NCBI GenBank assembly: GCA_963708075.1 | Contig: OY970194.1 | Span: 2,560,001 to 2,624,000 of the forward strand | Origin: Sedimentisphaerales bacterium | GTDB lineage: Bacteria; Planctomycetota; Phycisphaerae; Sedimentisphaerales; Anaerobacaceae | Length of the DNA stretch: 64,000 nt | Direction: 5' to 3' | In this document: positions 38,796 to 54,969 of the stretch, one piece after another | Layout of the letters: the number at the start of each line of letters is the position of its first letter | Position numbering within the stretch: the stretch's first letter is position 1 | Program-made: the position numbers and the translations under genes | The notes under the pieces: generated by a model | The model's input: the letters and a program-made list of their open reading frames with translations, nothing else | The model's database searches: none | What the model was told of the DNA's origin: nothing

Positions 38796-39474
38796 ATGAG
38801 AGTGTTGATTATCGAAGATGAGATCAGACTTGCGCAATATCGCCAAGGCGCTCAAGGAGACAGCGTCGTACGCAGTGGATATTTCCACCGATGGCGAGGA
38901 TGGCTGGCATCAAGCTCTCTCAAATCCCTACGACCTGATCCTGCTCGATCTGATGCTGCCGAAGGTGGGTGGGTTGGAGATCCTCGCAGAATTGCGCCGC
39001 CAAGGCAATCGGGTCCCCGTGCTCATACTTACCGCGAGGGACACCACCCGGGACATTATCCGGGGTCTGAACTCAGGCGGTGATGACTACATCACGAAAC
39101 CCTTCGACATGGGCGAGCTCCTGGCTCGCTGCAAGGCGATGGTGCGTCGAACCTATGATCGTCCCGACCCGGTTGTGCGTATCGGTGAGTTGTCGGTAGA
39201 TACATCCAGCCGGCTGGTGACCCTTCGAGGCCGGCGCGTGACGCTATCCGCGATGGAGTATCGGCTCCTGGAGTATCTCGTGTGGCGGGCCGGTCAGATC
39301 GTCAGCAAGGCGGAGATCATCGAACACCTGTATGATTTCAATGCCGAAACCTTCTCAAATGTTGTCGAGGTGTACATATCCACCCTTCGCAGAAAACTGG
39401 ATGTCGATCCCGAACGCTCCCTGATTCACACCGTCCGGGGTTTGGGATACGTCCTGGGAGAGGTATCCACGTGA
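38796..39474 (+). CDS. OmpR-family response regulator (frameshift ~38838)
   Basis: MRVLIIEDEIRLA in one frame, then NIAKAL...YDLILLDLMLP, VLILTAR, DDYITKPF, SNVVEVYI, IHTVRGLGY in the next. Confidence 0.92.
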
Positions 39475-41290: not shown

Positions 41291-41298
41291 GTGGAGAC

Positions 41299-41388
41299 CG
41301 GAGAGGCCGGGATTCGAACCCGGGGTAGGGGTTAACCCCCTACGACGGTTTAGCAAACCGTTGCCTTAAGCCACTCGGCCACCTCTCC
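41299..41388 (-). tRNA. tRNA-Ser(GCT)
   Basis: GGAGAGG/CCTCTCC acceptor stem, D-arm TGGCCGAGTGGCTTAAGGC, anticodon arm ACGGT-TTGCTAA-ACCGT, long variable arm, GTTCGAATC T-loop. CCA not encoded. Confidence 0.97.
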
Positions 41389-41444
41389 AAACCGTCTATC
41401 TACAATGACTTACGTCAAATCCTCGTCTTCCGCTCAGCAGGCTA

Positions 41445-41504: not shown

Positions 41505-41540
41505 CCCATGTCCAGAACCTGGTGTCTGGAGGCACCTGTC

Positions 41541-41702
41541 ATGACAGAACCCAAAGAACAACATAAGCCCACACCGGCAAGGCGAAGCCGATACCCTCTA
41601 AGTCTACACCGAACCGGGCAGCGGTACAAGAAAATTCATGGCAAGTTCCATTACTGTGTGTGCGACTACATTTCGTGGGGGCAGGCTGGTATTTTTCGCT
41701 GA
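41541..41702 (+). pseudogene. Tyrosine integrase N-terminal stub
   Basis: GGAGG RBS; YPLSLHRTGQRYKKIHGKFHY resembles, from memory, the N-terminus of planctomycete phage integrases. Similarity stops near 41654. Confidence 0.65.
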
Positions 41703-42162: not shown

Positions 42163-43500
42163 ATGGCTGGGTGTACCATGACTGAGAAAGCAACCCTGTT
42201 CATCAGCCATTCGACGCATGGACTTCCCAAGACCGACGCTTGTGTGCAGGTCCGGGACGCGCTGGCATCGACCTTCCGAGCAAAGAACTGGGACTTCTTC
42301 CTGGACATGAAGGCTATCGCTCCCGGGAACTCCTGGAGAGCGGACATCCTTCACAGCCTGGCCACGGCTCGCGCGGGGATCATCCTGTTCAATCAGAACG
42401 CCTGTGCTTCCACCTGGGTCACAGCGGAGGCTCTCATCCTGTGCTTCCGAAAATCGATCGATCCGGACTTTCCCGTCGTCCCTGTGCTCTTTCCAGGAGT
42501 CAGCCTGGACACCACCTGCATGAAGGCATACGAGCCGTTTCAACTCAATGAGATACAGGCGGATAGATATGACCCCGCTTCCGCTTTGTCCCCGGATGAG
42601 TTTGCGCAAGGGTTGGCGAAGAACGATCGTCTCAAAAGAGCCATGGAACGTCCGGGGAACGGCAGCGCCTGGGTGAAAGCCGTCACGGATTTGCTGAGCA
42701 GGTTGGATATTGATGTCTTGCGCCGCGCGGCCGAGCAACTGTCACTGGACTGCGGATCCCCCCTGCCCCCCGATGAGATGGCCCGCTGTCTGGCATGCTC
42801 CATCGCCAGCGTCATGCACGAGAGGCAGCCGCAGGATTGTGTACCAGCGTTTGGCGAGTTGATACCACCATTACTATCTGAAAAGGCGGCCTCATTGAGA
42901 CGCTATTTGGAGGCCAAATGGGTCGAGAACGAAAGCGTCGAGATTCTCCTCCACGCTTCGCACACGCCGGAAGCCCGAGGTCTTCTGGCGTTGAACACCT
43001 CACACGTACAGGTCACAAATCGCTATATAGATCGGGTGAACTACGAGCTTCCGGCGGGACGCACCCCCTTGCAGCGGATTTCGGTGCCCGAACCGAAAGG
43101 CGATTTCGAGGAACACGGTCTGATTCATGAAGTCGAGTCTGCCATCCGGGCCGTCCTCGTGAAGGATCCTCTCTACGATTCGGAAGGCAACGAACTCCCG
43201 TTAGAAGGGGCGGTGCGAGAGCTGTTATCGTCGGCGAAGAGATTTGCGATCTGTATCTTGCCCCCCCAATACACCTCCAAAGACGTCCTGCTGGAGTTGC
43301 GCAGACGTTTTTCCCGCATCATCTTCATTGTGGAGGCGGGCGACAAGAGCGAGCACATGACGAACTGCTTCGCCGCCGGTGCCAGGCAGCTCAATCCGCT
43401 GCTGAAACCGGCGAAATTGAACGAGTTTGCAGTTCTTCGTCGAGATCTGGACGCTACGTTCGATCAATACAATATCCTCAATTCTGGTGCGCACGTATGA
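42163..43500 (+). CDS. TIR domain protein with uncharacterised C-terminal region (VMAP/inactive-STAND-like adaptor)
   Basis: GGGGAG RBS; LFISHS...FFLDMKAIAPGNSWRADI...GIILF...STWVTAEA, with the catalytic-position Glu. ATGA overlap with the MoxR gene. Confidence 0.8.
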   Translation: MAGCTMTEKATLFISHSTHGLPKTDACVQVRDALASTFRAKNWDFFLDMKAIAPGNSWRADILHSLATARAGIILFNQNACASTWVTAEALILCFRKSIDPDFPVVPVLFPGVSLDTTCMKAYEPFQLNEIQADRYDPASALSPDEFAQGLAKNDRLKRAMERPGNGSAWVKAVTDLLSRLDIDVLRRAAEQLSLDCGSPLPPDEMARCLACSIASVMHERQPQDCVPAFGELIPPLLSEKAASLRRYLEAKWVENESVEILLHASHTPEARGLLALNTSHVQVTNRYIDRVNYELPAGRTPLQRISVPEPKGDFEEHGLIHEVESAIRAVLVKDPLYDSEGNELPLEGAVRELLSSAKRFAICILPPQYTSKDVLLELRRRFSRIIFIVEAGDKSEHMTNCFAAGARQLNPLLKPAKLNEFAVLRRDLDATFDQYNILNSGAHV

Positions 43501-44528
43501 AAACGACCCCACAATACGAACCGTTCCTCCCCTGGGCCAACCTGCCGCGGTACGGAATTCAGGGTGTATCGCCGGATGACCGATCCGGAGACATTTACCT
43601 TGAAGACGAGAGACTTCGGCTTGTGACCGAAGTGGCGATCGTCGCCAGGAGGCCATTGCTGATTCGCGGCGAGCCCGGCTCCGGCAAGTCCTCGTATGCG
43701 CCGTTTGCGGCCCGAAACCTCAACTGGCGTTACTACGAGTACACTGTAACGGGCCGGACGGAGGCAAAGGATCTGCTCTGGCGATTTGACGCGCTTGCTC
43801 GCTTGCGCGACGCTCAAGCGCAAGTGAAGCGAGAGCAAATGAAGCCTGCGCGTTATGTGACGCCGGGGGTCCTGTGGTGGGCTTTCAATCGGCAGGACGC
43901 GATAGCATTCTCCGCAACCGTGCACTCGAGGCGAACCGCGACCGCGACCCAGAGCCGGATCACGGAGCCTTTCGCCGAGGTGAACCGCAACCGCAATCCC
44001 GCGGGGGTGGTGGTCCTGATCGACGAAATCGACAAAGCGGATCCAGACGTGCCGAACGATCTCCTGGAAGTCATGGGGATGAATCGCTTTCGAGTGGAAG
44101 AAGCGGATCACGAGGTGGAGAGCCAACTGGCTGCCTCGCCGGGAGATTTCGACCCGGCGAATCGGTATGGTAGACTGCTGATTGTCATTACCACCAACGA
44201 GGAGCGCGACTTGCCGGCGGCTTTCCTGCGCCGATGCATCGTCCACACCTTGGAGGAACCGAAAGACAAGGAGTCAAGGATGCAACGACTGGGCAGCATC
44301 GCCCGCCTGCACATGGCGTCCCTGATCGAGAACCAACCCCAGGGTGTGGATTTTGTCAAACAGATCGCCGGGAAATGCGAGGATTTGCGTGAAGAGGCCC
44401 GACACAAGCAGCGGCGCGGGCCGAGCATAGCCGAATTTCTGGATGCCGTCCGGGTCTGTCTGACCCTCGGCGTTCCGCCTACCGATGCACGGTGGCAAAC
44501 GATTCAGCAAAATGTTCTGCTCAAGTAG
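43497..44528 (+). CDS. MoxR-family AAA+ ATPase
   Basis: RPLLIRGEPGSGKS, LLWRFDALARLRDA, VVLIDEIDKAD...PNDLL, IVITTNEERDLPAAFLRRC. Confidence 0.93.
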   Translation: MKTTPQYEPFLPWANLPRYGIQGVSPDDRSGDIYLEDERLRLVTEVAIVARRPLLIRGEPGSGKSSYAPFAARNLNWRYYEYTVTGRTEAKDLLWRFDALARLRDAQAQVKREQMKPARYVTPGVLWWAFNRQDAIAFSATVHSRRTATATQSRITEPFAEVNRNRNPAGVVVLIDEIDKADPDVPNDLLEVMGMNRFRVEEADHEVESQLAASPGDFDPANRYGRLLIVITTNEERDLPAAFLRRCIVHTLEEPKDKESRMQRLGSIARLHMASLIENQPQGVDFVKQIAGKCEDLREEARHKQRRGPSIAEFLDAVRVCLTLGVPPTDARWQTIQQNVLLK

Positions 44529-44579
44529 ATCACGATCCCTTTCAATAACGAGGACGTTTCCCCAACAGGAGAGGCCAGG

Positions 44580-45551
44580 ATGAACATGTGGCAAGGACAT
44601 CCGCGGAGCGAAGTGGGTCTTGCCGAGATGGTGCAAGCCTGCTATGTCCTCAATTTGTGCGAGGAAACCCATCTGCAGTGGCTGGCTCAGTCTCTGGGCC
44701 TGTTTTGGGCCAAAGTACCCGACCGCGAGGGCGATTCCACAGCCGCCGGAGCTGCGCCGAGCCCAGCGTCCTCTCCGCCCCCCGCCACCCCACCGAAACC
44801 CGAGCCACCCCGAAAGCTCCAATTGCTCGATCCGGTGGCTCAGAAGCCCATGGCCTTTGACGTGTTGCTCGCCGGGGATGCAGAGAGGGTCCGATCTGCG
44901 GCTCAACTCCGAGTTCCGGCCGCACCCACCAGCCGGGAATCCTCCTCGCACCAACCGTTGTTCGGGGATCGGTGGTTCCTCGGCATCATAAGTGCCATTC
45001 TCGCCACCCAAATGACCTCCCACGAAATCGACCTCCAGCTTCTGTGGCGGAGTATCATCCATGGTGAGGTCTTCAAGAAGCTTCCGCTGCGAAAGCATTC
45101 GAGTTTGATCAAGGGCGTGCATCTGCTCCTGGATCGCTCGGAATCGATGCAGCCGTTCTGGCGTGACCAGACCCAATTGGTGAGCCGACTGCGTCGCCTC
45201 CTCGGCAGACCCAAAGTTCAGACCACATGGTTCGAGTTTGATCCGCTCAGGCCCCGTGAGACACGTCTGATCTGGCCCGCGCGCATGCCGAATCGCTTTC
45301 GGGAGACAACCCCCGTTCTCCTCGTCACGGATTTTGGAATCGGAATGGACCCCCTGGCGGCTTACTACATGGAGTGGGAGCCTTGGCTTCCCGTTTTCCA
45401 GCTTGCCCGGAGTTGCCGCTGTCGAGTGCTTGCCCTGGTTGCGGCTCCGAGCAACCTGTGGCCCGCGGGCTTGGAACAGTTCGTCGATGGGGCTGTCGTT
45501 TGGGATCGTGAAACATCTCCACAGGTGGCCACACGCCTATGCCGAACGTAG
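44580..45551 (+). CDS. vWA-domain partner of MoxR
   Basis: Pro-rich linker, MIDAS-like LLLDRSESMQPF, PVLLVTDFG. Confidence 0.75.
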   Translation: MNMWQGHPRSEVGLAEMVQACYVLNLCEETHLQWLAQSLGLFWAKVPDREGDSTAAGAAPSPASSPPPATPPKPEPPRKLQLLDPVAQKPMAFDVLLAGDAERVRSAAQLRVPAAPTSRESSSHQPLFGDRWFLGIISAILATQMTSHEIDLQLLWRSIIHGEVFKKLPLRKHSSLIKGVHLLLDRSESMQPFWRDQTQLVSRLRRLLGRPKVQTTWFEFDPLRPRETRLIWPARMPNRFRETTPVLLVTDFGIGMDPLAAYYMEWEPWLPVFQLARSCRCRVLALVAAPSNLWPAGLEQFVDGAVVWDRETSPQVATRLCRT

Positions 45552-48500
45552 AGACAATCGCTCACGATGAATCGGGTGCCATCGAGGAGGCACGCTCTGA
45601 AGTGGCGGCTTGCGAAAGGAGGCGGCCTGACGTCGTGGCGTTGGCGGAACTCGCCTCCCTGGCTCGGTTCATCGAACCGGAGTTGCTTCGCGCGATCCGA
45701 CTGGAACTGGGCGAGCGAGCCGCCGGATCGACACGAATGACGGTGGCCAGCGAGTCGGCTGTCTGGTTCAGCCCATTTGTCGCAAGTCGGGGCGCGGACG
45801 GTATTACCTTCCTGCCGGAGTATTGCCACGTGCTTCGACCGCGACTGGCCGCCCATCGCCTCCTTCTGGAGGACACCAGGCGCGTCGTTGAGGAGTGCCA
45901 CAAATCGGCCCCCGACGTGCTTCAGTGGGAAGAGAGAATCGTATATCTCGCATTAACCGGACGGTTGGACGAACTGGAGAATGAAATCGTACGGGGCATC
46001 AAAAGCATCTCTCAAGGAACCAGGCCGCCGCTGGTCAATTGGATCCTCGAAATGGGGCCCCGTCTGCCGCAAGAGGTGTCCAACAACGCACTGTTGAACA
46101 AGCTCCACAGCCTGGCCGCCGGTTTGTCGCTGCGACGAACTCCCACCGGCGCCGGCAGCAAGGGACTGATTCTCGATTTCTCCTCCTTGCCGACGCGCGA
46201 ATTGGGGGTAGCGCTTCGAGAGAACAACTTCGTGATCGGGGACGTACCGCAAGCCACTGTCGGAATTCGAGTGCCCGACTGGGAGCCGGTGGAAATCGAT
46301 ATTCTGACACCCAAGGAATTGATTACCGGCCAACCCCTTGTTGTATCCCGCGACGGATTTGCGGAAGTCAGCGCCTCCAGGGGAGTCGTGCGGATTCAGA
46401 CGGTGGCTGGCCACGTCTACGAACTCGATCCGGCCTCTTTCCGGCCCCTCCAGTCTCATACGATCTTCATCAGCTATAGTCACGAGGATGAAGCGTGGAA
46501 AGACAAGCTGCTGCCGCATCTCAAGGTGCTGGAACCGGCCGGCATGAACATCAGAATCCGGAGTGATATGGAAATTGACGGCGAGGCAAACCGGCATTCT
46601 CAAATCCAGGACGCCCTCGCCGAAGCCGACGTCGCCGTGCTGTTGATCTCGCCTGACTACCTGGCCTCTCGTTCCATAATGGATAAAGAGGTCCCCGTTT
46701 TGCTGGAGCGTCAGAAGAGGGACAACATCCTCTTGATTCCTCTGCTCGTTCGCCCATGCAGGTGGGAGACACACCAATGGTTGAGGGACCGACCGATGCT
46801 GCCCCGAGACGGCAGATCGATGGCGACCGATTATCCGGGAGAGAAGGCCGACACCGTTTTGAGCGAGATAGCTCGTTACATTCACGAGCATCTCACCCGT
46901 CTCGGAGACCCTTCGCAACGTGAGGCGATGCCGCGGGGCAGTGACGAGTGGCCCCAGTTATCACCGAACGATGTCTCCATTGCCAGGCTCCCTACTTCCA
47001 GCGAGCACTTCCTGGGTCGCGACGACGAACTGGCCTTCCTCGACGCAGCATGGGCAGGAGAACTCGGCTCGAAGTTCGTGTTGCACGATTCCCGCTTCAC
47101 GTATCCCAAACCTCGGCCCACTGTTCTCACTATCGTCGCTTGGGGCGGCGTCGGCAAATCCGCCCTCATCAACGAGTGGCTTGCGCGCATGGCGCGCGAT
47201 CACTGGCGTGGAGCGGAGCGGGTCTTTGCGTGGAGCTTCTACAGCCAGGGCACGCGGGACCGCGTCGCTTCCGGCGACTCGTTCATTGCCGAAGCGCTCA
47301 AGTGGTTCGGCGACCCGGACCCCGTCGCCGGGTCCCCATGGGACAGAGGCGAGCGGCTCGCCCGGCTCATCCGCCGGCAGCGCACGCTGCTTCTTCTGGA
47401 CGGCTTGGAGACGCTTCAGCAGCCGCCGAACGCCCCGGAGCCGGGCCAGATCACCGACCCCGCGCTGGCCGCGCTCGTCCGCGAGTTGGCCATGGAGAAC
47501 CCGGGCCTGTGCGTCATCACCACCCGTGAGCCAGTGACCGACCTCGCCGGCACACACCGGGCCACCACCGCCCAACTCGACCTCGCACACCTGTCCCCCG
47601 AAGCCGGCGCTATGCTCCTGCGTGAGTTGGGCGTGCAAGGCGCTGACAGCGAGTTACGGCAGCTCGTGCAGGAGGTGCGCGGCCATGCCCTGACTCTCAG
47701 CCTGACCGGCAGATATCTGGTAATGGCCTACGCCGGCGACATCCGTAAACGTGGGGAATTGAAGCTCCTCAAGGCCGACGCCGCAGTGCAAGGCGGCCAC
47801 GCCTTCCACATCATGGAAACGTATGACAGGTGGTTCCTCCGCGAGGGCGAGCAGGGCCGGCCGCTGATCGCCATCCTGCATCTGCTTGGCCTCTTCGATG
47901 GACCGGCGGACTCAGGATGTCTCGCCGCATTGCGGAGGAAGCCACCCATCGCCGATCTCACGGAGCCGCTTATGGGTCTTACCGACGCCCAATGGAGACT
48001 CGCTATCTCGCAGTTGGCCTCCTGCGGTCTCGTGTCAGTCCAATCTGACGAATCCGCAATCGATTCTCATGCCTTGGTCCGCGAGTATTATGCCGAGCAG
48101 GTGCGAACGCGATTTCCTGCGGCATGGAGGGAAGGTCAGAACCGATGCTATGAACACTTCCAACAGATTGCACCCGAACGGCCCGACACGCTGGAAGAGA
48201 TGATGCCGCTCTTTGCCGCCGTGACCCATGGCTGCCAGGCTGACCAGCATCAACGTGCGTTTGACGACGTGTACTACCGACGGATTTGCCGCGAGAGTGA
48301 GTTGTATCAACTCCGCAGGCTTGGCGTCTTCGGTGCTGATCTTGGGGCTATTTCCGGCTTCTTCCTCCGGCCTTGGGATGAGCCGGTCCCGACTTTGCGC
48401 GATTCCAGCCAAGCATGGTTGTTGAACGCGGCGAGTTTCGACCTGCGAGCTCTGGGCCGTCCGGCGGAGGCGATGCAGCCGGCGCGAACCAAACTGGACG

Positions 48501-49471
48501 CACACGCGGCCAAGGAGGACTGGGAGCAGGTCGCACGCGCTGCTGGCCACCTCAGTGAGTCGAGCCTGACACTGGGAGCACTGACGGAGGCCGCGCAGTA
48601 TGCCAGGCAGAGTATGAACCTCGCTGATCGCAGCGAGAATATGTTGTGCCAAATCACCAGCCGCACGGCGCTGGCCGATGTCCTGCACCAAGCCGGCCAG
48701 TTGGAGGAAGCCGAAAAGCTGTTCCACGAGGCCGAAATCATGCAGACGAAGACGCAGCCGGAGTACCCGCTGCTCTGTTCATTGCAGGGCTACCGGTATT
48801 GCGACCTGTTGTTGACCCTGGGCGGTTGCGGGCCGTTGCTGTCGGATTCAGTCAGCCGATCTCAGAAAGCTCCTGTCGAATCGCCGACGCGTTCTGCCTT
48901 CACCCCGGGCTCTGCCTGCGAGCCCCAGTCCGCGATCCAAGCGTGCCACGCGGTGCAGCAACGCGCCACTCAAACGATCAGGATTGCCGAGCAGGGCCAA
49001 TGGCCTCTCGACATTGCGCTCGATCATCTGAGTCTGGGTCGAGCCATCCTGCTGGAGCATGTCCTGGGGCCCGATGATCAACCGCTGGACCCTGCATCCA
49101 AACACCTGAATGCCGCCGTGGACGGCCTTCGGCGAGCCGGAAGACAGGATTGCCTGCCTCTCGGCCTGCTGGCACGAGCCGCGCTGTGGCGGGTCGGCGG
49201 CGACCCGGTCGGCGCGGCGCGTGATTTGGGCGAAGCGAAGGGACTGGCCGACCGGAGCGGTATGAAGCTCTTCCTGATCGACGGTCTGATCGAGCAAGCG
49301 TGTCAATTGATTCAGGAGCCGGGGAGCAGGACTCAGAAGTCGACGGGCGAGCGGCTGGAGTCGGCCCTGGAGTGTGTGGCAAGAGCTAGGACGCTCATCG
49401 AATCCACCGGCTATCACCGCCGTGACAGAGAGATCCGTTACCTCGAACAGAGCATAGAAAGACAATCGTAA
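45539..49471 (+). CDS. NLR-like protein: N-terminal domain, TIR, STAND NTPase, TPR
   Basis: N-terminal LAELASLARFIEPELLRAIRL...ESAVWFSP; TIR IFISYSHED...AVLLISPDYLAS...DKEV; FLGRDDEL; Walker A AWGGVGKS; Walker B LLLLDGLE; CVITTR; GHALTL; TPR-like C-terminus. Confidence 0.88.
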   Translation: MPNVETIAHDESGAIEEARSEVAACERRRPDVVALAELASLARFIEPELLRAIRLELGERAAGSTRMTVASESAVWFSPFVASRGADGITFLPEYCHVLRPRLAAHRLLLEDTRRVVEECHKSAPDVLQWEERIVYLALTGRLDELENEIVRGIKSISQGTRPPLVNWILEMGPRLPQEVSNNALLNKLHSLAAGLSLRRTPTGAGSKGLILDFSSLPTRELGVALRENNFVIGDVPQATVGIRVPDWEPVEIDILTPKELITGQPLVVSRDGFAEVSASRGVVRIQTVAGHVYELDPASFRPLQSHTIFISYSHEDEAWKDKLLPHLKVLEPAGMNIRIRSDMEIDGEANRHSQIQDALAEADVAVLLISPDYLASRSIMDKEVPVLLERQKRDNILLIPLLVRPCRWETHQWLRDRPMLPRDGRSMATDYPGEKADTVLSEIARYIHEHLTRLGDPSQREAMPRGSDEWPQLSPNDVSIARLPTSSEHFLGRDDELAFLDAAWAGELGSKFVLHDSRFTYPKPRPTVLTIVAWGGVGKSALINEWLARMARDHWRGAERVFAWSFYSQGTRDRVASGDSFIAEALKWFGDPDPVAGSPWDRGERLARLIRRQRTLLLLDGLETLQQPPNAPEPGQITDPALAALVRELAMENPGLCVITTREPVTDLAGTHRATTAQLDLAHLSPEAGAMLLRELGVQGADSELRQLVQEVRGHALTLSLTGRYLVMAYAGDIRKRGELKLLKADAAVQGGHAFHIMETYDRWFLREGEQGRPLIAILHLLGLFDGPADSGCLAALRRKPPIADLTEPLMGLTDAQWRLAISQLASCGLVSVQSDESAIDSHALVREYYAEQVRTRFPAAWREGQNRCYEHFQQIAPERPDTLEEMMPLFAAVTHGCQADQHQRAFDDVYYRRICRESELYQLRRLGVFGADLGAISGFFLRPWDEPVPTLRDSSQAWLLNAASFDLRALGRPAEAMQPARTKLDAHAAKEDWEQVARAAGHLSESSLTLGALTEAAQYARQSMNLADRSENMLCQITSRTALADVLHQAGQLEEAEKLFHEAEIMQTKTQPEYPLLCSLQGYRYCDLLLTLGGCGPLLSDSVSRSQKAPVESPTRSAFTPGSACEPQSAIQACHAVQQRATQTIRIAEQGQWPLDIALDHLSLGRAILLEHVLGPDDQPLDPASKHLNAAVDGLRRAGRQDCLPLGLLARAALWRVGGDPVGAARDLGEAKGLADRSGMKLFLIDGLIEQACQLIQEPGSRTQKSTGERLESALECVARARTLIESTGYHRRDREIRYLEQSIERQS

Positions 49472-49949
49472 GCAGAGCCTGGGCGTCGTTCACAGATGCT
49501 TATGCATCGGGCAGGTTCAATCGCAGCCCGCACCGGTCCATGCGGGAGCGCGTTCACTGTCCCAATGTCAACAATGTATAGACGCTGTAGCCCGTTCCGC
49601 CGGCAGTGGCACCATCCAGCGGGTGGCGTTGGAGGACTTTGGGCTGTTGGTTTAGCATCCGTCGTCCCGGCTGGAGCATCCGCCCCGCAGGTCAGACTCG
49701 ACTCGACCGATCCGCCGGACTTCGCAGCGCGACCAACGGATGAGCTGCACGAGCTGCTCAAGCCGACCTTGGGGCTTGAGAATCAGTTCCGGCTATGTCA
49801 TAATCATGATCGGGCCTTCGCTCCATTTGCGCGGTTCAATGAGGAGACCGTATCGTTGACACACATACCGCAAACGATCTTTGTTCGCGTGGGAACGCCC
49901 AAAGGCATGTATCCCGAGGACTTCGCATGGCTGTTGAAAGGATACCGAG

Positions 49950-50993
49950 ATGGACACGAAAATCAGCGAGGACGCGGCGAACGTAGAAGCGTTGATTCGA
50001 AGGGCAGAGAAAGACATCGGCTCGGATGATCTTGAGGATTACCGCATCCGGCCGACGATCTTCCCTCAAACCACCCAGCGCCCGGCGCCGGAACTTGCCG
50101 ACGTATTGCGCGACAGTCTGCTGACTGAGACGGCGATGCGCTATGAAACGAAAGACGCCAAGGCGCAGGCGGCTCAGAGGTCACTCAAGCGGTTGGCGAA
50201 CTGTAGTACCTGGTCAGTTTTCGTCGTGACGGTAACGGGTGCCCTGCTTGCCAGCCTGAGTATTTTCTCTGCCGCCGACACGAGTTCACGTTGGAGGCCA
50301 GTGGTTATATTGCTGAGCTGTTGCGCCTTATTGGGCGGGGCGTTGGCAAGCTGGTGCCTTTGCCGCATCGACAAACAACATCTCCTTCGAGACTGGATGA
50401 GCGCGCGCGCTGGTGCGGAGTCAGAGAGGCTGGCCTACTTCGAACGGCTCGTTCAGCGCATCACGGAGAATCACGCGGAGGACCCGCGTGTGATGTTGCT
50501 CTGCCTGGAATTCTTTCGCCGCTATCAACTTGCCGTACAGCAGGTGTACTATAGGACGCGTACCCAGGATCATGGTAGCTCGCGAAGGAAAACGGTCGCC
50601 ATCGGGGCTGTTGCGGTAGCCATCCTTTCCGTCGGTTCCGGCGGTTTCGGCATATGGGCATCCATCCGACCTGAGGTGCTTCCGCTGGCAGCACTTGGGG
50701 CTATCGGAAGCGCCTTAGCCATCGTGGCCACTCGTCGTGAGGAACTCAACCAGGACGAACGTAACGCTGAACGATTTGAACGCACCTCAGATGCGTTGAG
50801 CCATGTCAGGGAGCGCCACTCCGCCGTCCAGAATGCTGTTGCACGCGGCAACTCGCGGGTCCTCTCACAATATGTCGCTGCTGTTCATGAGCAGGTTTCA
50901 CTTGAACATCGGCAGTGGCTTGCAGACGCTGAGACCATAGGCGTACAAATCAAGGAGTTGAACGCATCTCTCAAAGACCTTGGGGAGAAGTGA
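49950..50993 (+). CDS. DUF4231/SLATT-like membrane protein (two 2TM units)
   Basis: First TM pair followed by DWMSARAGAESER; QQVYY...; second TM pair; ends HEQVSLEHRQW. Confidence 0.7.
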   Translation: MDTKISEDAANVEALIRRAEKDIGSDDLEDYRIRPTIFPQTTQRPAPELADVLRDSLLTETAMRYETKDAKAQAAQRSLKRLANCSTWSVFVVTVTGALLASLSIFSAADTSSRWRPVVILLSCCALLGGALASWCLCRIDKQHLLRDWMSARAGAESERLAYFERLVQRITENHAEDPRVMLLCLEFFRRYQLAVQQVYYRTRTQDHGSSRRKTVAIGAVAVAILSVGSGGFGIWASIRPEVLPLAALGAIGSALAIVATRREELNQDERNAERFERTSDALSHVRERHSAVQNAVARGNSRVLSQYVAAVHEQVSLEHRQWLADAETIGVQIKELNASLKDLGEK

Positions 50994-51383
50994 GGTTGTC
51001 GACCACCTCTTCTGTCCATGGCGTGCAGCGATGGTTCCGTCGCTTCGTCCTCCAGCTCCAGAAGGTGTTCCCCGGGCTCCAGCCGGATCATCCGGTTCGT
51101 GTCACCTGGAATCGTCTCGCTGATTCTGCCCCCCGCCTCACATGGGAATTGTATTACAGGCCGCGCCGCGTCCGTTCTCTTGCCACGCACTTTCTGGGTG
51201 CACGACAAAAAAGTGGCACTCGATCCGGGTGGCAGCGTCAAGGCCGAAGGCCTTGGCGATGGTTATGCTGCGTCCGAGGCAGGCCATCGCCAAGCTGCGC
51301 TTGACGCTGCCACCCAAGAGTCTCATCCTCGCTCTGCCACAATCTTGTCGTACACCCCACTTTCTCAGGCCCGGAATAAATGC

Positions 51384-51413
51384 TTGCTCTCTCACGAGAA
51401 GAGGTAATATAAT
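51384..51413 (+). promoter_or_regulatory. Putative sigma70 promoter of the phosphoesterase-CHAT pair
   Basis: TTGCTC-18 bp-TATAAT; the gene at 51585 has an AAAGGAGG RBS. Confidence 0.45.
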
Positions 51414-51584
51414 CATGTCTTACTCGGTGCCCAAGAACTGTGGGGCCTCTGCAAGAGGACAGAACAGCAGTTATTTGGATTGAGGCGGGAAACAAAAATT
51501 TCGCAATTCGCCCACGTAGAAACAAGCGGCGTGTCTTGTCACTGAACAAGTACGGAGAGAACAAGGCCTTGAAAGGAGGTTCAG

Positions 51585-53139
51585 ATGACGACATGTATTC
51601 CGAACTACGACGCGCTCTATGTTGTCTCTGACATTCATATGGGGGGCGGTAAGCCGCGCTTTCAGATCCTGAACCAGGGGTCCCGCCTCGGGAAGCTGAT
51701 CCAAAGGCTGGCCGGAGAGCGCCCCGATGACGAGGTCGCACTCGTGTTGAATGGCGACGTCATCGACTCCCTCGCGGAAGATTCCATCGGGTATATTGCG
51801 ATAGACAATGCCGACCAGATGATGCGTCATATCTATCGAGATCCAGCCTTCGAGCCGGTGTGGCGCGGCTTGGCCGAATTTGTGAAGCAGGATCATCGCC
51901 ACTTGATCTTCGTCCTGGGCAATCACGACCTCGAAATGGCGCTCCCGCACGTCGAGTACTCGATACGCCAGCAGATCACACAAGGAGACACGCTGCGGCA
52001 GGGTCGCATCACGTTCGCTACGCGCGGTGGCGGCTATGCATGCAAGGTCGGCCACTCTCATGTGTTCTGCACGCATGGGAACGAAGTCGACGATTGGAAC
52101 GTCGTCGATTATGGCGCCCTTGGCAGGCTCGCACGAAGCATCAATGTTGGACTGAGCCTCAAACAGTCCGAGTGGACTCCCAATGCCGGGACGCGGCTTG
52201 TCATCGATGTCATGAACGGCATCAAACAGGACTACGCCTTCGTCGATCTGCTGAAACCCGAGAACCGAGACCGTCGTCCCCATCTTACTCGCTCTCGAGC
52301 CGTTGACAATAAAGGATGTCCTTGCGTTTCTGCCCGGCATTATGGCCGGCAAGTTCTGGGGCGGGCTTAGAAGGCGGGGAATCCTCTCCGGCGACGTGGA
52401 CAGCATGGAGGCGATCACAGATGCGAGGGCGGCGGGCGATGCCGTCCTCGATAGCTTGCTCGGCCCTCACTTCAAACAGGCCATCAAGCCCGGCGGCTCA
52501 TGCATGCCACAAGACACCGGCACCTTACTCCTTGACGTCGAGACATCCCTTGCCTCGGGCCCTGACAACCCAGACAGTGACGGGACGGAGCAGGGAGAGA
52601 CACTCGGAGTGATTCAGTGCGCCCAGTACGTTGCAGACCGCCTCAGGGGCGTCGATAAGGTAGAAGCGCTGCGTCGAGCCCTACAAGACTGGTTGTCGGA
52701 GGATGAGACATTCAAGCTCGACACTAAAGACAAGACCTACAAACGGGTGACTGACAAAGTCGGCTCCGCCGTGGATTTCGTCATCACTGGTCACACCCAC
52801 CTGGAGCGGGCCATTGCCGACGAGTCCAAGCGGCGTTTCTATTACAACTGCGGGACATGGGCTCGCTTGCTCCGTCTCGGGCCCAAGACTCTGTCTGACC
52901 CCGAGACGTTCCAAACAATCTGGGATGTCATACGCGCCGGAGAGATGCAGAAACTCGATGAGACAACTGTCAAGGCTGACGACGGATCGGAGGTGCCTCT
53001 GATTCTACTCAAGTCGACTGTGGTGAGAATCTCTTCCGAGAATGGCAAGGTCGAGGGCAGACTTTTTCATGTGAGAGACACCGGCGCCGAGGATGTGGAT
53101 CTGGACCCGGTGCCTGACTCAACGTTCGAGAGGAGGTAA
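51585..53139 (+). CDS. Calcineurin-like metallophosphoesterase (frameshift ~52263)
   Basis: All five metal motifs across the two ORFs: SDIH, NGDVID, GNHD, THG, GHTH; also YYNCGTW. Confidence 0.88.
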
Positions 53140-53142
53140 GGG

Positions 53143-54969
53143 ATGGCTGCGGTACACGAAATCACGCTTGAGTTGTTACGTGAGGGCCGGGCGCACAACC
53201 AACTGCTATCGGAGTTTACCCGATACCTTGCCATCTGTGGCGACGCATCCCCGGCGACGGTCAGCTTCGAGAACCGAGCACCGAGCGCTTCTCGATCGTC
53301 TCGATCACCTTCGATATCTGGACGTTCGCGAGGCGTCGCGTCAATCGGCGGTGCGCGAGCTCGGTGAGATCAGCGGTCGCTTTCTAAGCAGTATCCCGGA
53401 GCTCAACGCGGAGCTATCGAGCCGGGAAAGTGCCGACTCCGACATCGTCCACTTGAGATTGGTTCTGTTCGGTTCCGAGCTTGGATTGATACCATTCGAG
53501 TTAGCCACCCTCCCCGAGGGCTCCGTGGGCGAGGGCCTGCCGCTTCTTCTCCAGTCGGAAACGCCCGTCACCCTGACCCGCGAGGTACGCCGCTGCCGCC
53601 CAGTCCCCGTAAACTGGGACCGCAAGCCTCGGATTCTTTTTGTTTCTGCCGAGCCCGGGGACTCGAGGTGCCTGTCAGGGCGCACCTGGGGGCCTTGCGA
53701 CGCGCCCTGGAGCCATGGATCACGTGGGAGAAGACGCCGGAAGAGCGTCTGCGGCACGTGAACGAGTCGCTGACCGTTCTGACGGGAGCCAGCCTCGAAG
53801 CTATCCGGGACGCCTGTCGTTCCAAGCCTTTCACCCACGTTCATATCCTTGCCCATGGGATCCCCACCGAGGAGGCGGGCGAGAAGCGCTACGGCCTGGC
53901 GTTGAGCTCCAAGCGAGACCCTTCTTCACTCGATCGGATCACCGGACGGCAGATCGCCGTCGCACTCCGAGAGGGGCGACTGGGCCCTTCCGTGGTGACG
54001 CTCATGACGTGCGACAGTGGCAATCAGGCTTCGGTGCTGATCCCGGGCGGGAGCATCGCCCACGAGCTGCATGCGTTCGGCATTCCGTGGGTCATTGCAT
54101 CTCAGTTTCCTCTCACGAAGACAGGTTCCGTCACCGTCGTGCAGTCTCTCTACGAGGGTCTGCTCCGGGGTGACGATCCCAGGTTCGTGTTGCAGTCGGT
54201 GCGGCGGTCTCTTTACACACGAGCACACACCGACCACGATTGGGCCAGCCTCGTCGCCTATGCAACCTTGCCGCTCGATTTCGACCGGCAAGTTGCCGCA
54301 CTACGCGATCGACAACTGCGAACGGCCCTGGATGTCGCCCTCGACAAGGCAACGAAGACTCCGAGCGGCGATGAGGCCCTGGCGAACAGCCTGCAGCAGC
54401 TCGAACATCGACTTCTCGGCCTGTCGGAAAGCGACGAACTGGGGGCTCGTGCTGAGCGCTCCGAGTGGCTCGGTAAGAAAGCGGCGATTTCGAAGCTGCG
54501 AGCCGACATCCTGTACAAGCGAAAGCTGCCGACGGAAGCACGGGAACTGCTGCGCTCCTCTCGATCCTTGTATGGAAGGGCTCGGGAAGCGGATTTGAAC
54601 AACCATTGGGTCGCGACGCAGTTCCTCTCTTTGAGCGTCATTCTCGGCGAGAAGGTGGAGGACTTCTGGTGGGGCCTCGCTCGCTACAGTGCAGAGCAGA
54701 CGTTGCAGCGGGCTTCGAGCCTCGACCGGGCCTGGGCGCATGGGACGCTGGCGGAACTCGAAATGCTCAGCATCGTGAACGCCACGGATGGTATCCAGGA
54801 AATCCAGAAGAGGGTCAAGGAGCACTGTCGCGCGATCGTGCAGCTCGTCGGGAAAGATTCTTTCGTAGTCTTTTCGACGCGGCGGCAATTCACGCGGTAC
54901 ATAGAGTGGTGGGATTGCGATCAGTGGCGTCCGATCGCGCAAACGGCGGTCGAAGTCTTGAATGCCTGA
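53143..54969 (+). CDS. CHAT (caspase-like) protease with C-terminal TPR-S/DUF4071-like region (frameshifts ~53272 and ~53658)
   Basis: GGAGG RBS; HLRLV...ELGLIPFEL, PRILFVSA, catalytic HVHILAHG and VTLMTCDSG, VIASQFP, DWAS; tail WAHGTLAEL...STRRQF. Confidence 0.85.

Follow-up and report, generated by a model that had tools for sequence, protein, structure and literature searches.

The locus described here raises the question of whether seven adjacent genes of immune character form one defence circuit or are separate systems stacked side by side. It occupies positions 42163-54969 of the window, meaning the whole 64,000-nucleotide stretch that was analysed (positions 2,560,001 to 2,624,000 of contig OY970194.1, assembly GCA_963708075.1, from a Sedimentisphaerales bacterium), and its seven genes, all judged real, are co-oriented on the plus strand. 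A preliminary description, made from the letters alone, had read in them two TIR domains, a MoxR ATPase, a vWA protein, a STAND-TPR protein, a calcineurin-like phosphoesterase and a caspase-like protease, and these calls were borne out by Pfam matches (for gene 3, by a DxSxS motif), as was the defence-like character of the locus. The locus is probably a strain-level defence island beside a tRNA-Ser gene, in which two independent units, A (genes 1-4) and B (genes 6-7), are accompanied by one loosely attached gene (gene 5).

The most distinctive part of the island is unit B. Gene 6 (51585..53139, plus strand) encodes a calcineurin-like metallophosphoesterase of about 517 amino acids (Pfam Metallophos), in which all five metal-binding motifs are conserved and an insert of about 230 residues lies between the fourth and the fifth. 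Gene 7 (53143..54969, plus strand), of about 608 amino acids, consists of an N-terminal domain, a CHAT protease domain (E 7.5e-18) and a TPR-S domain whose match is weak (E 0.0025, below the cut-off). The His (HILAHG) and Cys (CD) of the protease dyad are invariant in 39 of 39 aligned rows and are present in gene 7.

Relatives of the protease are numerous (705 among 8000 scored candidates). A genome scan yielded 269 confirmed protease loci, of which the best 80 were kept, and the counts that follow describe close relatives only; the 80 loci are kin and not independent, and the host organisms come from many phyla. In 79 of the 80 the gene immediately upstream of the CHAT-TPR-S protease is the phosphoesterase, and the same adjacency is found in both of two further same-phylum genomes. 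The sole locus without it (L053, 3786-11974) has two TIR genes, an alpha/beta-hydrolase and a SLOG-like open reading frame (ORF) before the protease, the last having no Pfam match. No third gene is common to most of the 80 loci. Distances within the phosphoesterase and protease families correlate (rho 0.87), which adjacency alone would give.

Within its own phylum the phosphoesterase is patchy, occurring in 2 of 400 genomes, and among the matches listed it was not found as DNA in 23 same-genus genomes; no relatives were found in viral contigs. By sequence, neither the phosphoesterase nor the protease alignment has a relative of solved structure, apart from one chance match to the phosphoesterase (E 0.074). 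A minority of cassette loci have TIR, SIR2-TIR, Roc-COR-TIR or TPR-S neighbours. A small RyR-domain gene is located near the pair in L050, L051, L056, L059 and L121, directly downstream in most of them, and in several gammaproteobacteria (L073, L075-L078, L080, L081, L088 and L100) the pair is preceded by a conserved gene cluster encoding an alpha/beta-hydrolase, an acetoacetate-decarboxylase-like protein, a patatin and a GMC oxidoreductase. Neither the literature searches nor the TPR-S entries listed in the two eLife supplements contain a pairing of calcineurin with CASPASE+TPR-S, which may be described in Krishnan 2020 or Burroughs 2015, outside the literature searched. Genes 6 and 7 apparently constitute a separate two-gene unit that has no name.

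Structure prediction points to a contact between the two proteins. A complex model of the intact homologous pair from locus L043 gave an ipSAE of 0.71, against 0.00 for the best control, a value reached by 116 of 157 solved complexes and by 2 of 215 mismatched pairs; with the custom alignments used here, these counts hold only roughly. The L043 runs share at least 59% of contacts, and the partner pLDDT (predicted local distance difference test) is at least 74. In the confident interface, the phosphoesterase insert helix 303-326 would rest on protease residues 187-224 and 343-351, and this docking helix stands just before an invariant Leu-Gly. The variable part of the insert contains L265 and L335-G336, which do not change in any of 36 rows, and Ser or Gly follows L265 in 34 of the 36. 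The pattern of a helix followed by Leu-Gly fits 70 of 75 intact phosphoesterase copies.

Published work supplies parallels for cleavage at such a site. In Runella, gasdermin is cleaved by a CHAT protease at a Leu-Gly that lies in an exposed loop (bioRxiv 2021.06.07.447441), and hydrolases that neighbouring proteases cut at two places turn into death effectors (bioRxiv 2025.11.14.688446). The latter source, citing Krishnan 2020, also lists an MPE-like enzyme as an uncharacterised protease partner, which may or may not belong to the gene 6 family, and a 2021 supplement contains hydrolase+CASPASE+TPR-S fusions (PMC8195603). As described in these sources, the protease-activated modules (those with MBL, alpha/beta-hydrolase, Pepco or EACC1 partners, and gasdermin-CHAT) resemble the cassette in their conserved adjacency of enzyme and protease and in the intact dyad, and differ from it in that the partner here is a calcineurin-like phosphoesterase and the cleavage a prediction. 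The literature searched holds no demonstration of a metallophosphoesterase switched on by proteolysis. On the strength of the interface model, the invariant Leu-Gly, the gasdermin and cut-hydrolase precedents, the hydrolase of L053 and the published fusions, we favour the phosphoesterase as a cleavage-activated effector, rather than a signal eraser, and offer this as a reading that falls somewhat short of an even chance. A bound regulator or eraser is less favoured, and we regard it as doubtful.

Profiles of the gene 1 C-terminal domain, vWA, vWA-L and gene 5 have no match in any of the 80 cassette loci, 53 of which offer at least 9.5 kb of upstream sequence; one locus has a weak partial AAA match and another a SLATT of a different family nearby. 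TIR domains occur in the examined flanks of 9 of the 80, in mixed types and positions, and a TIR-STAND-TPR gene like gene 4 lies directly upstream of the cassette in 2 related genomes. In the reverse direction, no match to gene 5, 6 or 7 was found in 12 metagenomic gene 1 loci or in 17 same-phylum MoxR regions. In one sample of 400 same-phylum genomes, the matches to MoxR (13), gene 5 (1) and the phosphoesterase (2) all fell in different genomes, and none of five genomes with a TIR-type third component carried the phosphoesterase. Units A and B are very probably independent. The preliminary description had proposed that the set could form one circuit, in which the phosphoesterase erases a TIR-made signal, with the caveat that the gaps could mean stacked modules; with the pair lacking the MoxR module in all 80 loci and a nearby TIR in 71, the caveat holds and the single circuit with its eraser role is not supported. 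Its suggested survey of neighbourhoods likewise recovered the pair and nowhere among the 80 loci the seven genes together.

Unit A begins with gene 1 (42163..43500, plus strand), which encodes 440 amino acids comprising a TIR domain (TIR_2, E 1e-8), a helical region and a degenerate AAA+/STAND-like domain, the putative third component of a TERNS3-type system. Its homologues begin near the second ATG, at 42178. TIR_2 is found in 23 of 23 family members, and the Glu84 at the catalytic position is invariant in all of them. Gene 2 (43497..44528, plus strand) is a MoxR AAA+ ATPase (AAA_5/bpMoxR match) with intact Walker A, Walker B and arginine-finger motifs, and gene 3 (44580..45551, plus strand) is a stand-alone vWA component with the DxSxS motif and no Pfam match; the motifs present in these two proteins (GEPGSGKS, DEIDK, FLRRC and DRSES) predict activity from sequence. 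Gene 4 (45539..49471, plus strand) joins a vWA-L linker (about amino acids 1-300) to a TIR domain, a STAND NTPase and TPRs, identified by Pfam as TIR_2, NACHT-like STAND and TPR.

A metagenome scan with the gene 1 alignment gave 12 loci, 7 of them long enough to show gene order. In the window and in all 7, the order is gene 1, MoxR, vWA and a separate vWA-L gene, and in all 7 that fourth gene opens with the first 300 residues of gene 4. A frameshift at the gene 3/4 boundary was considered and rejected, the split being kept in 7 of 7 close loci. Among these relatives the N-terminal part of gene 4 is conserved and the C-terminal part variable, the linker being followed by STAND-TPR, SEFIR-cNMP-STAND, NB-ARC-TPR, TIR, WD40-Roc or Roc-TIR. 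Since it starts with the vWA-L linker, gene 4 falls in the variable-effector slot, and to judge by its sequence it is the variable-effector gene of the ternary system rather than the sensor that had been proposed. Stand-alone TIR-STAND-TPR proteins related to it occur in L033, L051 and L064. A further STAND-TPR gene, split over frames and sharing about 40% identity with the C-terminal part of gene 4, is found at G000:C1:1049843-1052242 (L150), and a close TERNS3-type operon (L037, 232-9657) is preceded by a ThsB-like TIR, a TIR, SLOG and two WD40 proteins, making another stacked island. Gene 4 also resembles Avs and other bacterial NLR-like STAND proteins in its TIR, intact STAND NTPase and TPRs; it differs from Avs in being fused behind vWA-L, and no PADLOC Avs model matched it.

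The preliminary description had recognised no named system in the locus. For genes 1-4 that view gives way: by architecture and by proxy they fit a TERNS3-type MoxR-vWA ternary system. In the TERNS3 design of PMC8195603, the third component carries a fused TIR, vWA is encoded by its own gene and vWA-L comes with effectors, and 79 TERNS3 rows were counted by eye in its Figure 2-source data 1. The window shares the order of third component, MoxR, vWA and separate vWA-L with effector, as well as the TIR fused directly to the third component; the 440 amino acids of gene 1 lie inside the usual third-component length in that table (400-470 amino acids). The effector string of gene 4 matches the 4 of 79 rows given as vWA-L+TIR+STAND+TPRs, and a SLATT+SLATT neighbour appears in 14 of 79, all actinobacterial and with the SLATT mostly upstream; 2 of the 79 combine a TIR+STAND+TPRs effector with SLATT+SLATT. 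Differences from the published rows are that gene 5 lies downstream and belongs to a diverged subfamily, that the source describes a novel alpha+beta domain where gene 1 is modelled as AAA+/STAND-like, and that the calcineurin and CASPASE+TPR-S pair is in none of the 79 table rows. As proxy served a Streptomyces plasmid whose SLATT, TIR protein, MoxR, vWA and vWA-L-CHAT reproduce the published TERNS3 layout. The gene 1 C-terminal domain profile aligned to the protein in the same slot of two Streptomyces plasmids (hhalign 91.5%, E 9e-7; reversed control 0.1%) and to five same-phylum proteins (97.7%). A profile search aimed at named TERNS3 members returned 3 new unnamed proteins only. The check with PADLOC that had been suggested, run together with NCBIfam on 9 window ORFs, gave partial TIR, AAA and CHAT domain matches and no full-length system model, and intact homologues gave partial domain matches as well.

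What kind of domain the third component of gene 1 might be was approached by folding residues 226-440 alone, since a whole-length fold search was filled by TIR matches. The model has a pLDDT of 92, and its best structural match is archaeal ORC2 (VIA Z 10.1, root-mean-square deviation 4.8, 188 aligned of 215 residues), followed by Sir3, CED-4, Cdc6, BrxC, TnsC and NLRs. Foldseek places the same proteins first, with a probability of 0.99 and an E of only 2.6e-3. Walker A is present in none of 26 family rows and the Walker B position has no acid; together with the ORC/STAND fold matches, this identifies the modelled domain as a nucleotide-dead AAA+ of the ORC/STAND group, an assignment that is supported and not proven, given the middling Z and the high deviation. 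As TERNS3 is described as a novel alpha+beta domain (PMC8195603), the model suggests that this "novel" domain may be a dead AAA+/STAND module. A whole-word literature search for TERNS3 gave no other relevant paper.

It is also possible, from the sequence, that genes 1-4 should be labelled iSTAND2, since that system too has a split vWA and vWA-L and two TIR-fused rows (TIR+iSTAND2; PMC8195603). The third component of iSTAND and iSTAND2 systems is an inactive STAND-like module (PMC7159879; PMC8195603), and gene 1 is like it in having a modelled STAND/AAA+ fold without NTP-binding motifs. The two TIR+iSTAND2 rows, however, are of 382-388 amino acids against the 440 of gene 1. The Pfam iSTAND profile matches none of 23 gene 1 family members at E<=0.1, ESM Atlas iSTAND clusters scored just 0.78-0.81, and the iSTAND2 partners EAD and trypsin have no Pfam match in the locus.

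Gene 5 (49950..50993, plus strand) encodes a putative tandem SLATT protein (SLATT_3/DUF4231-like followed by SLATT_1-like) with four transmembrane segments and is a predicted pore effector. SLATT and TPR-S were reportedly defined by Burroughs in 2015. The match of gene 5 itself to the SLATT_1 profile is sub-threshold (27 bits against a cut-off of 41). The family has 582 representatives, and among 50 aligned members examined, 49 match NCBIfam SLATT_1 (NF033634) and 20 match DUF4231 at E<=0.01, and 41 match Pfam SLATT_1. The two-part design is that of the SLATT gene in the Streptomyces plasmid operon. A SLATT protein is the effector of type VII Thoeris, which makes cyclic ADP-ribose (cADPR) (bioRxiv 2025.12.03.692087), and the window differs from that type, as described there, in having no stand-alone TIR paired with the SLATT, both TIRs being fused in genes 1 and 4. 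Only three relatives of gene 5 were located elsewhere: one among 400 same-phylum genomes, where neither a TIR nor a module match lies nearby; one partial match in 301 genomes of another phylum; and one in a viral contig (L151, 4763-12698), between two TIR-WD40 genes, with a patatin and a SLOG-like gene alongside. Searches of 221 genomes of a third phylum, of 5 cassette-bearing genomes and of plasmids gave no further copy, and the number located is too small to establish linkage. Against a direct link to the ternary genes are the lack of any gene 5 match in the ternary loci examined and a promoter-like site that precedes the gene, the best sigma-70-like match of the region (49776..49804, plus strand, in the gap between genes 4 and 5; 10 of 12 positions with a TG extension; a consensus match only). 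That the SLATT belongs with the MoxR module, as had been supposed, is borne out in part, by the SLATT+SLATT genes that flank TERNS3 operons in 14 of the 79 published rows; whether gene 5 serves unit A is an even question.

A number of observations weigh against this account of the island. In unit B, the confident interface includes neither the catalytic His and Cys nor the Leu-Gly itself, Leu-Gly is a common structural turn, and the model was built on the homologous L043 pair and not on the frameshifted genes of the window. Many cassettes sit amid housekeeping or metabolic genes, which is atypical of defence islands, with RNase E beside the pair in 7 Nitrosomonas-type loci (4 of which have a holB-like gene at the opposite flank) and the hydrolase, decarboxylase, patatin and GMC cluster beside it in 8-12. 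In unit A, TERNS3 membership was reached by architecture and proxy, there being no gene 1 homologue with an accession listed in the table and no library model match. The reverse test of linkage is thin because only 5 of 13 ternary loci have at least 5.5 kb of downstream sequence. Finally, the gene 5 profile gave no alignment with the SLATT+SLATT of Streptomyces (0.3%, a single sequence), on account of which gene 5 may be a separate passenger.

Considering that all seven genes are co-oriented and contiguous, with a short-read contig joining the SLATT end to the gap before gene 6, one integrated circuit might still be imagined, in which SLATT and CHAT-TPR-S would respond to a signal that the TIRs produce and the phosphoesterase removes. 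Thoeris types IV (TIR and caspase-like), VII (TIR and SLATT) and VIII (TIR and TPR-bearing hydrolase) between them contain the TIR, SLATT, caspase-like and TPR parts seen in the window, and the TPRs of type VIII are presumed cADPR sensors (bioRxiv 2025.12.03.692087). Nor would a diffusible signal need conserved linkage, and a TIR does stand near 9 of 80 cassettes, in two related genomes as the gene 4-like protein mentioned above. Set against this, the ternary module accompanies none of the 80 cassettes, 71 of which have no TIR in the examined flanks, the caspase gene thereby lacking the conserved TIR neighbour of type IV; none of the 79 TERNS3 rows includes the pair; the window has no stand-alone ThsB-like TIR, both TIRs being fused into ternary-system proteins; and the promoter-like site separates genes 4 and 5. 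We consider such a circuit improbable. Much the same low probability attaches to the idea that TPR-S reads a TIR-made ADP-ribose signal, which would make the cassette a plug-in receiver for any TIR, including that of the neighbouring TERNS3 system.

The remaining alternatives concern what the pair does. The units could be independent and the phosphoesterase a bound regulator, either removing or making a nucleotide signal read by TPR-S or holding the protease in an antitoxin-like grip, with the protease as the killer. The modelled contact, made by a helix on a face apart from the listed catalytic residues, would suit this, as would the retention of all five metal-binding motifs, and caspase-like proteases without an effector can protect against phage (bioRxiv 2025.11.14.688446). 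It leaves unexplained, however, why an otherwise variable segment of the insert is bounded by invariant motifs, Leu-Gly at one end and Leu-Ser/Gly at the other, and no conserved signal-making enzyme accompanies the pair; in this form the proposal is unlikely. Or the pair might be no anti-phage system at all and instead a regulator of stress or of lipid or nucleotide metabolism that happens to sit in an island, as the stable housekeeping and metabolic neighbourhoods in Nitrosomonas, Methylobacter, Azotobacter, Shewanella and Rheinheimera loci and the lack of a PADLOC or NCBIfam defence model for the phosphoesterase would allow. The patchy distribution, the TIR, SIR2-TIR, Roc-COR-TIR and TPR-S neighbours of some loci and the CASPASE+TPR-S entries in published conflict-system tables argue otherwise, and we give this the least credence of all.

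The island lies next to tRNA-Ser(GCT) (41298..41389), which is on the minus strand, placing the island on its 5' side; Rfam families in the region match the tRNA only. Between them is a remnant of 45 codons (41520..41654, plus strand) with 40% identity to the start of another ORF in the genome (E 7e-4), and it adjoins the same tRNA in the loci of relatives (L140 and L142). From its resemblance to such arms, it is labelled a putative N-terminal arm of a tyrosine integrase; neither it nor the matching ORF has a Pfam match. Among the matches listed in the 23 same-genus genomes, the island coding DNA is absent, except for short STAND-region pieces in three, and the flanks of the island do match.

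Intergenic gaps of 478 and 591 bp separate genes 4 and 5 and genes 5 and 6, respectively. An ORF in the former (49496-50029) was rejected as a gene, having no tblastn match in 92 loci. In the latter, 170 bp represent a recent insertion of a miniature inverted-repeat transposable element (MITE; 51196..51357, unstranded) of 162 bp with terminal inverted repeats and an 8-bp target duplication. The element is strain-variable, being missing from one contig of short-read run X2 (a skip of 170), and has 5 genome copies at 99-100% identity. Its 90-bp palindromic core has about 200 blastn matches in the genome, and several same-genus genomes contain matches as well; the family has no identified parent transposase. 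A short-read contig spans from the end of the SLATT gene into the gap before gene 6.

As assembled, gene 6 contains one frameshift (52263) and gene 7 two (53272 and 53657-60). Two of the three are assembly errors: the extra A at 52263 is absent from one contig of run X1 (depth 3.9), and that at 53272/3 is absent in X1 and X2 contigs, with a loose end in X4. The contigs are of low depth, and homologues agree with removal of both bases. At the third shift, in a G run, the contigs are uninformative either way and homologues read straight through; genes 6 and 7 are treated as intact in the living strain, the third shift being unproven. Both extra-A errors (52256-52270 and 53266-53280) lie within the same word, GAGAACCGAG. 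Genome-wide, the ratio to expectation is 0.83 for GAGACC and 1.14 for GAGAACC, which faintly suggests a long-read miscall tied to this motif, and with so weak a skew a systematic GAGACC miscall was rejected as the source of both errors. An upstream response-regulator gene (38796-39474) also seems to carry a frameshift in its early part, in keeping with indel errors scattered through the assembly.

The biochemical steps that we infer for the island would run as follows. The dead AAA+/STAND-like domain of gene 1 would sense an invader or scaffold a complex, and MoxR with vWA would set an ATP-dependent threshold. The vWA-L-linked TIR-STAND-TPR protein and the gene 1 TIR would then consume NAD or make an ADP-ribose signal, for which the tandem SLATT of gene 5 is the likely membrane effector. 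In unit B, the phosphoesterase is modelled as docked on the caspase domain through its insert helix; the protease, probably activated through TPR-S, would cut the adjacent loop at Leu-Gly, and the cleaved, active phosphoesterase may destroy a nucleotide or lipid-linked metabolite and stop the cell. Taken as a whole, the proposal that genes 6-7 make up a widespread immune unit without a name, whose protease, gated by TPR-S, cuts a gripped phosphoesterase at Leu-Gly (perhaps at Leu-Ser too) and frees a death effector, and that, separately, TERNS3 is a third inactive STAND, is more tentative than the effector role by itself.

Most of the locus was predicted in 2021, and this known part is ordinary for the field. 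What looks new is the phosphoesterase-caspase cassette, for which an interface is predicted and a candidate cut site can be named, and the fold assignment of gene 1. If gene 1 is TERNS3, its AAA+/STAND assignment is new; if true, TERNS3 would be a third inactive STAND, and iSTAND, iSTAND2 and TERNS3 would be of one ancestry, unifying three classes of ternary system. The cassette is a tightly conserved pair, with intact copies in cultured Nitrosomonas, Methylobacter, Azotobacter and Shewanella. It could bring in an effector chemistry new to protease-gated bacterial immunity and offer a way into what TPR-S senses.

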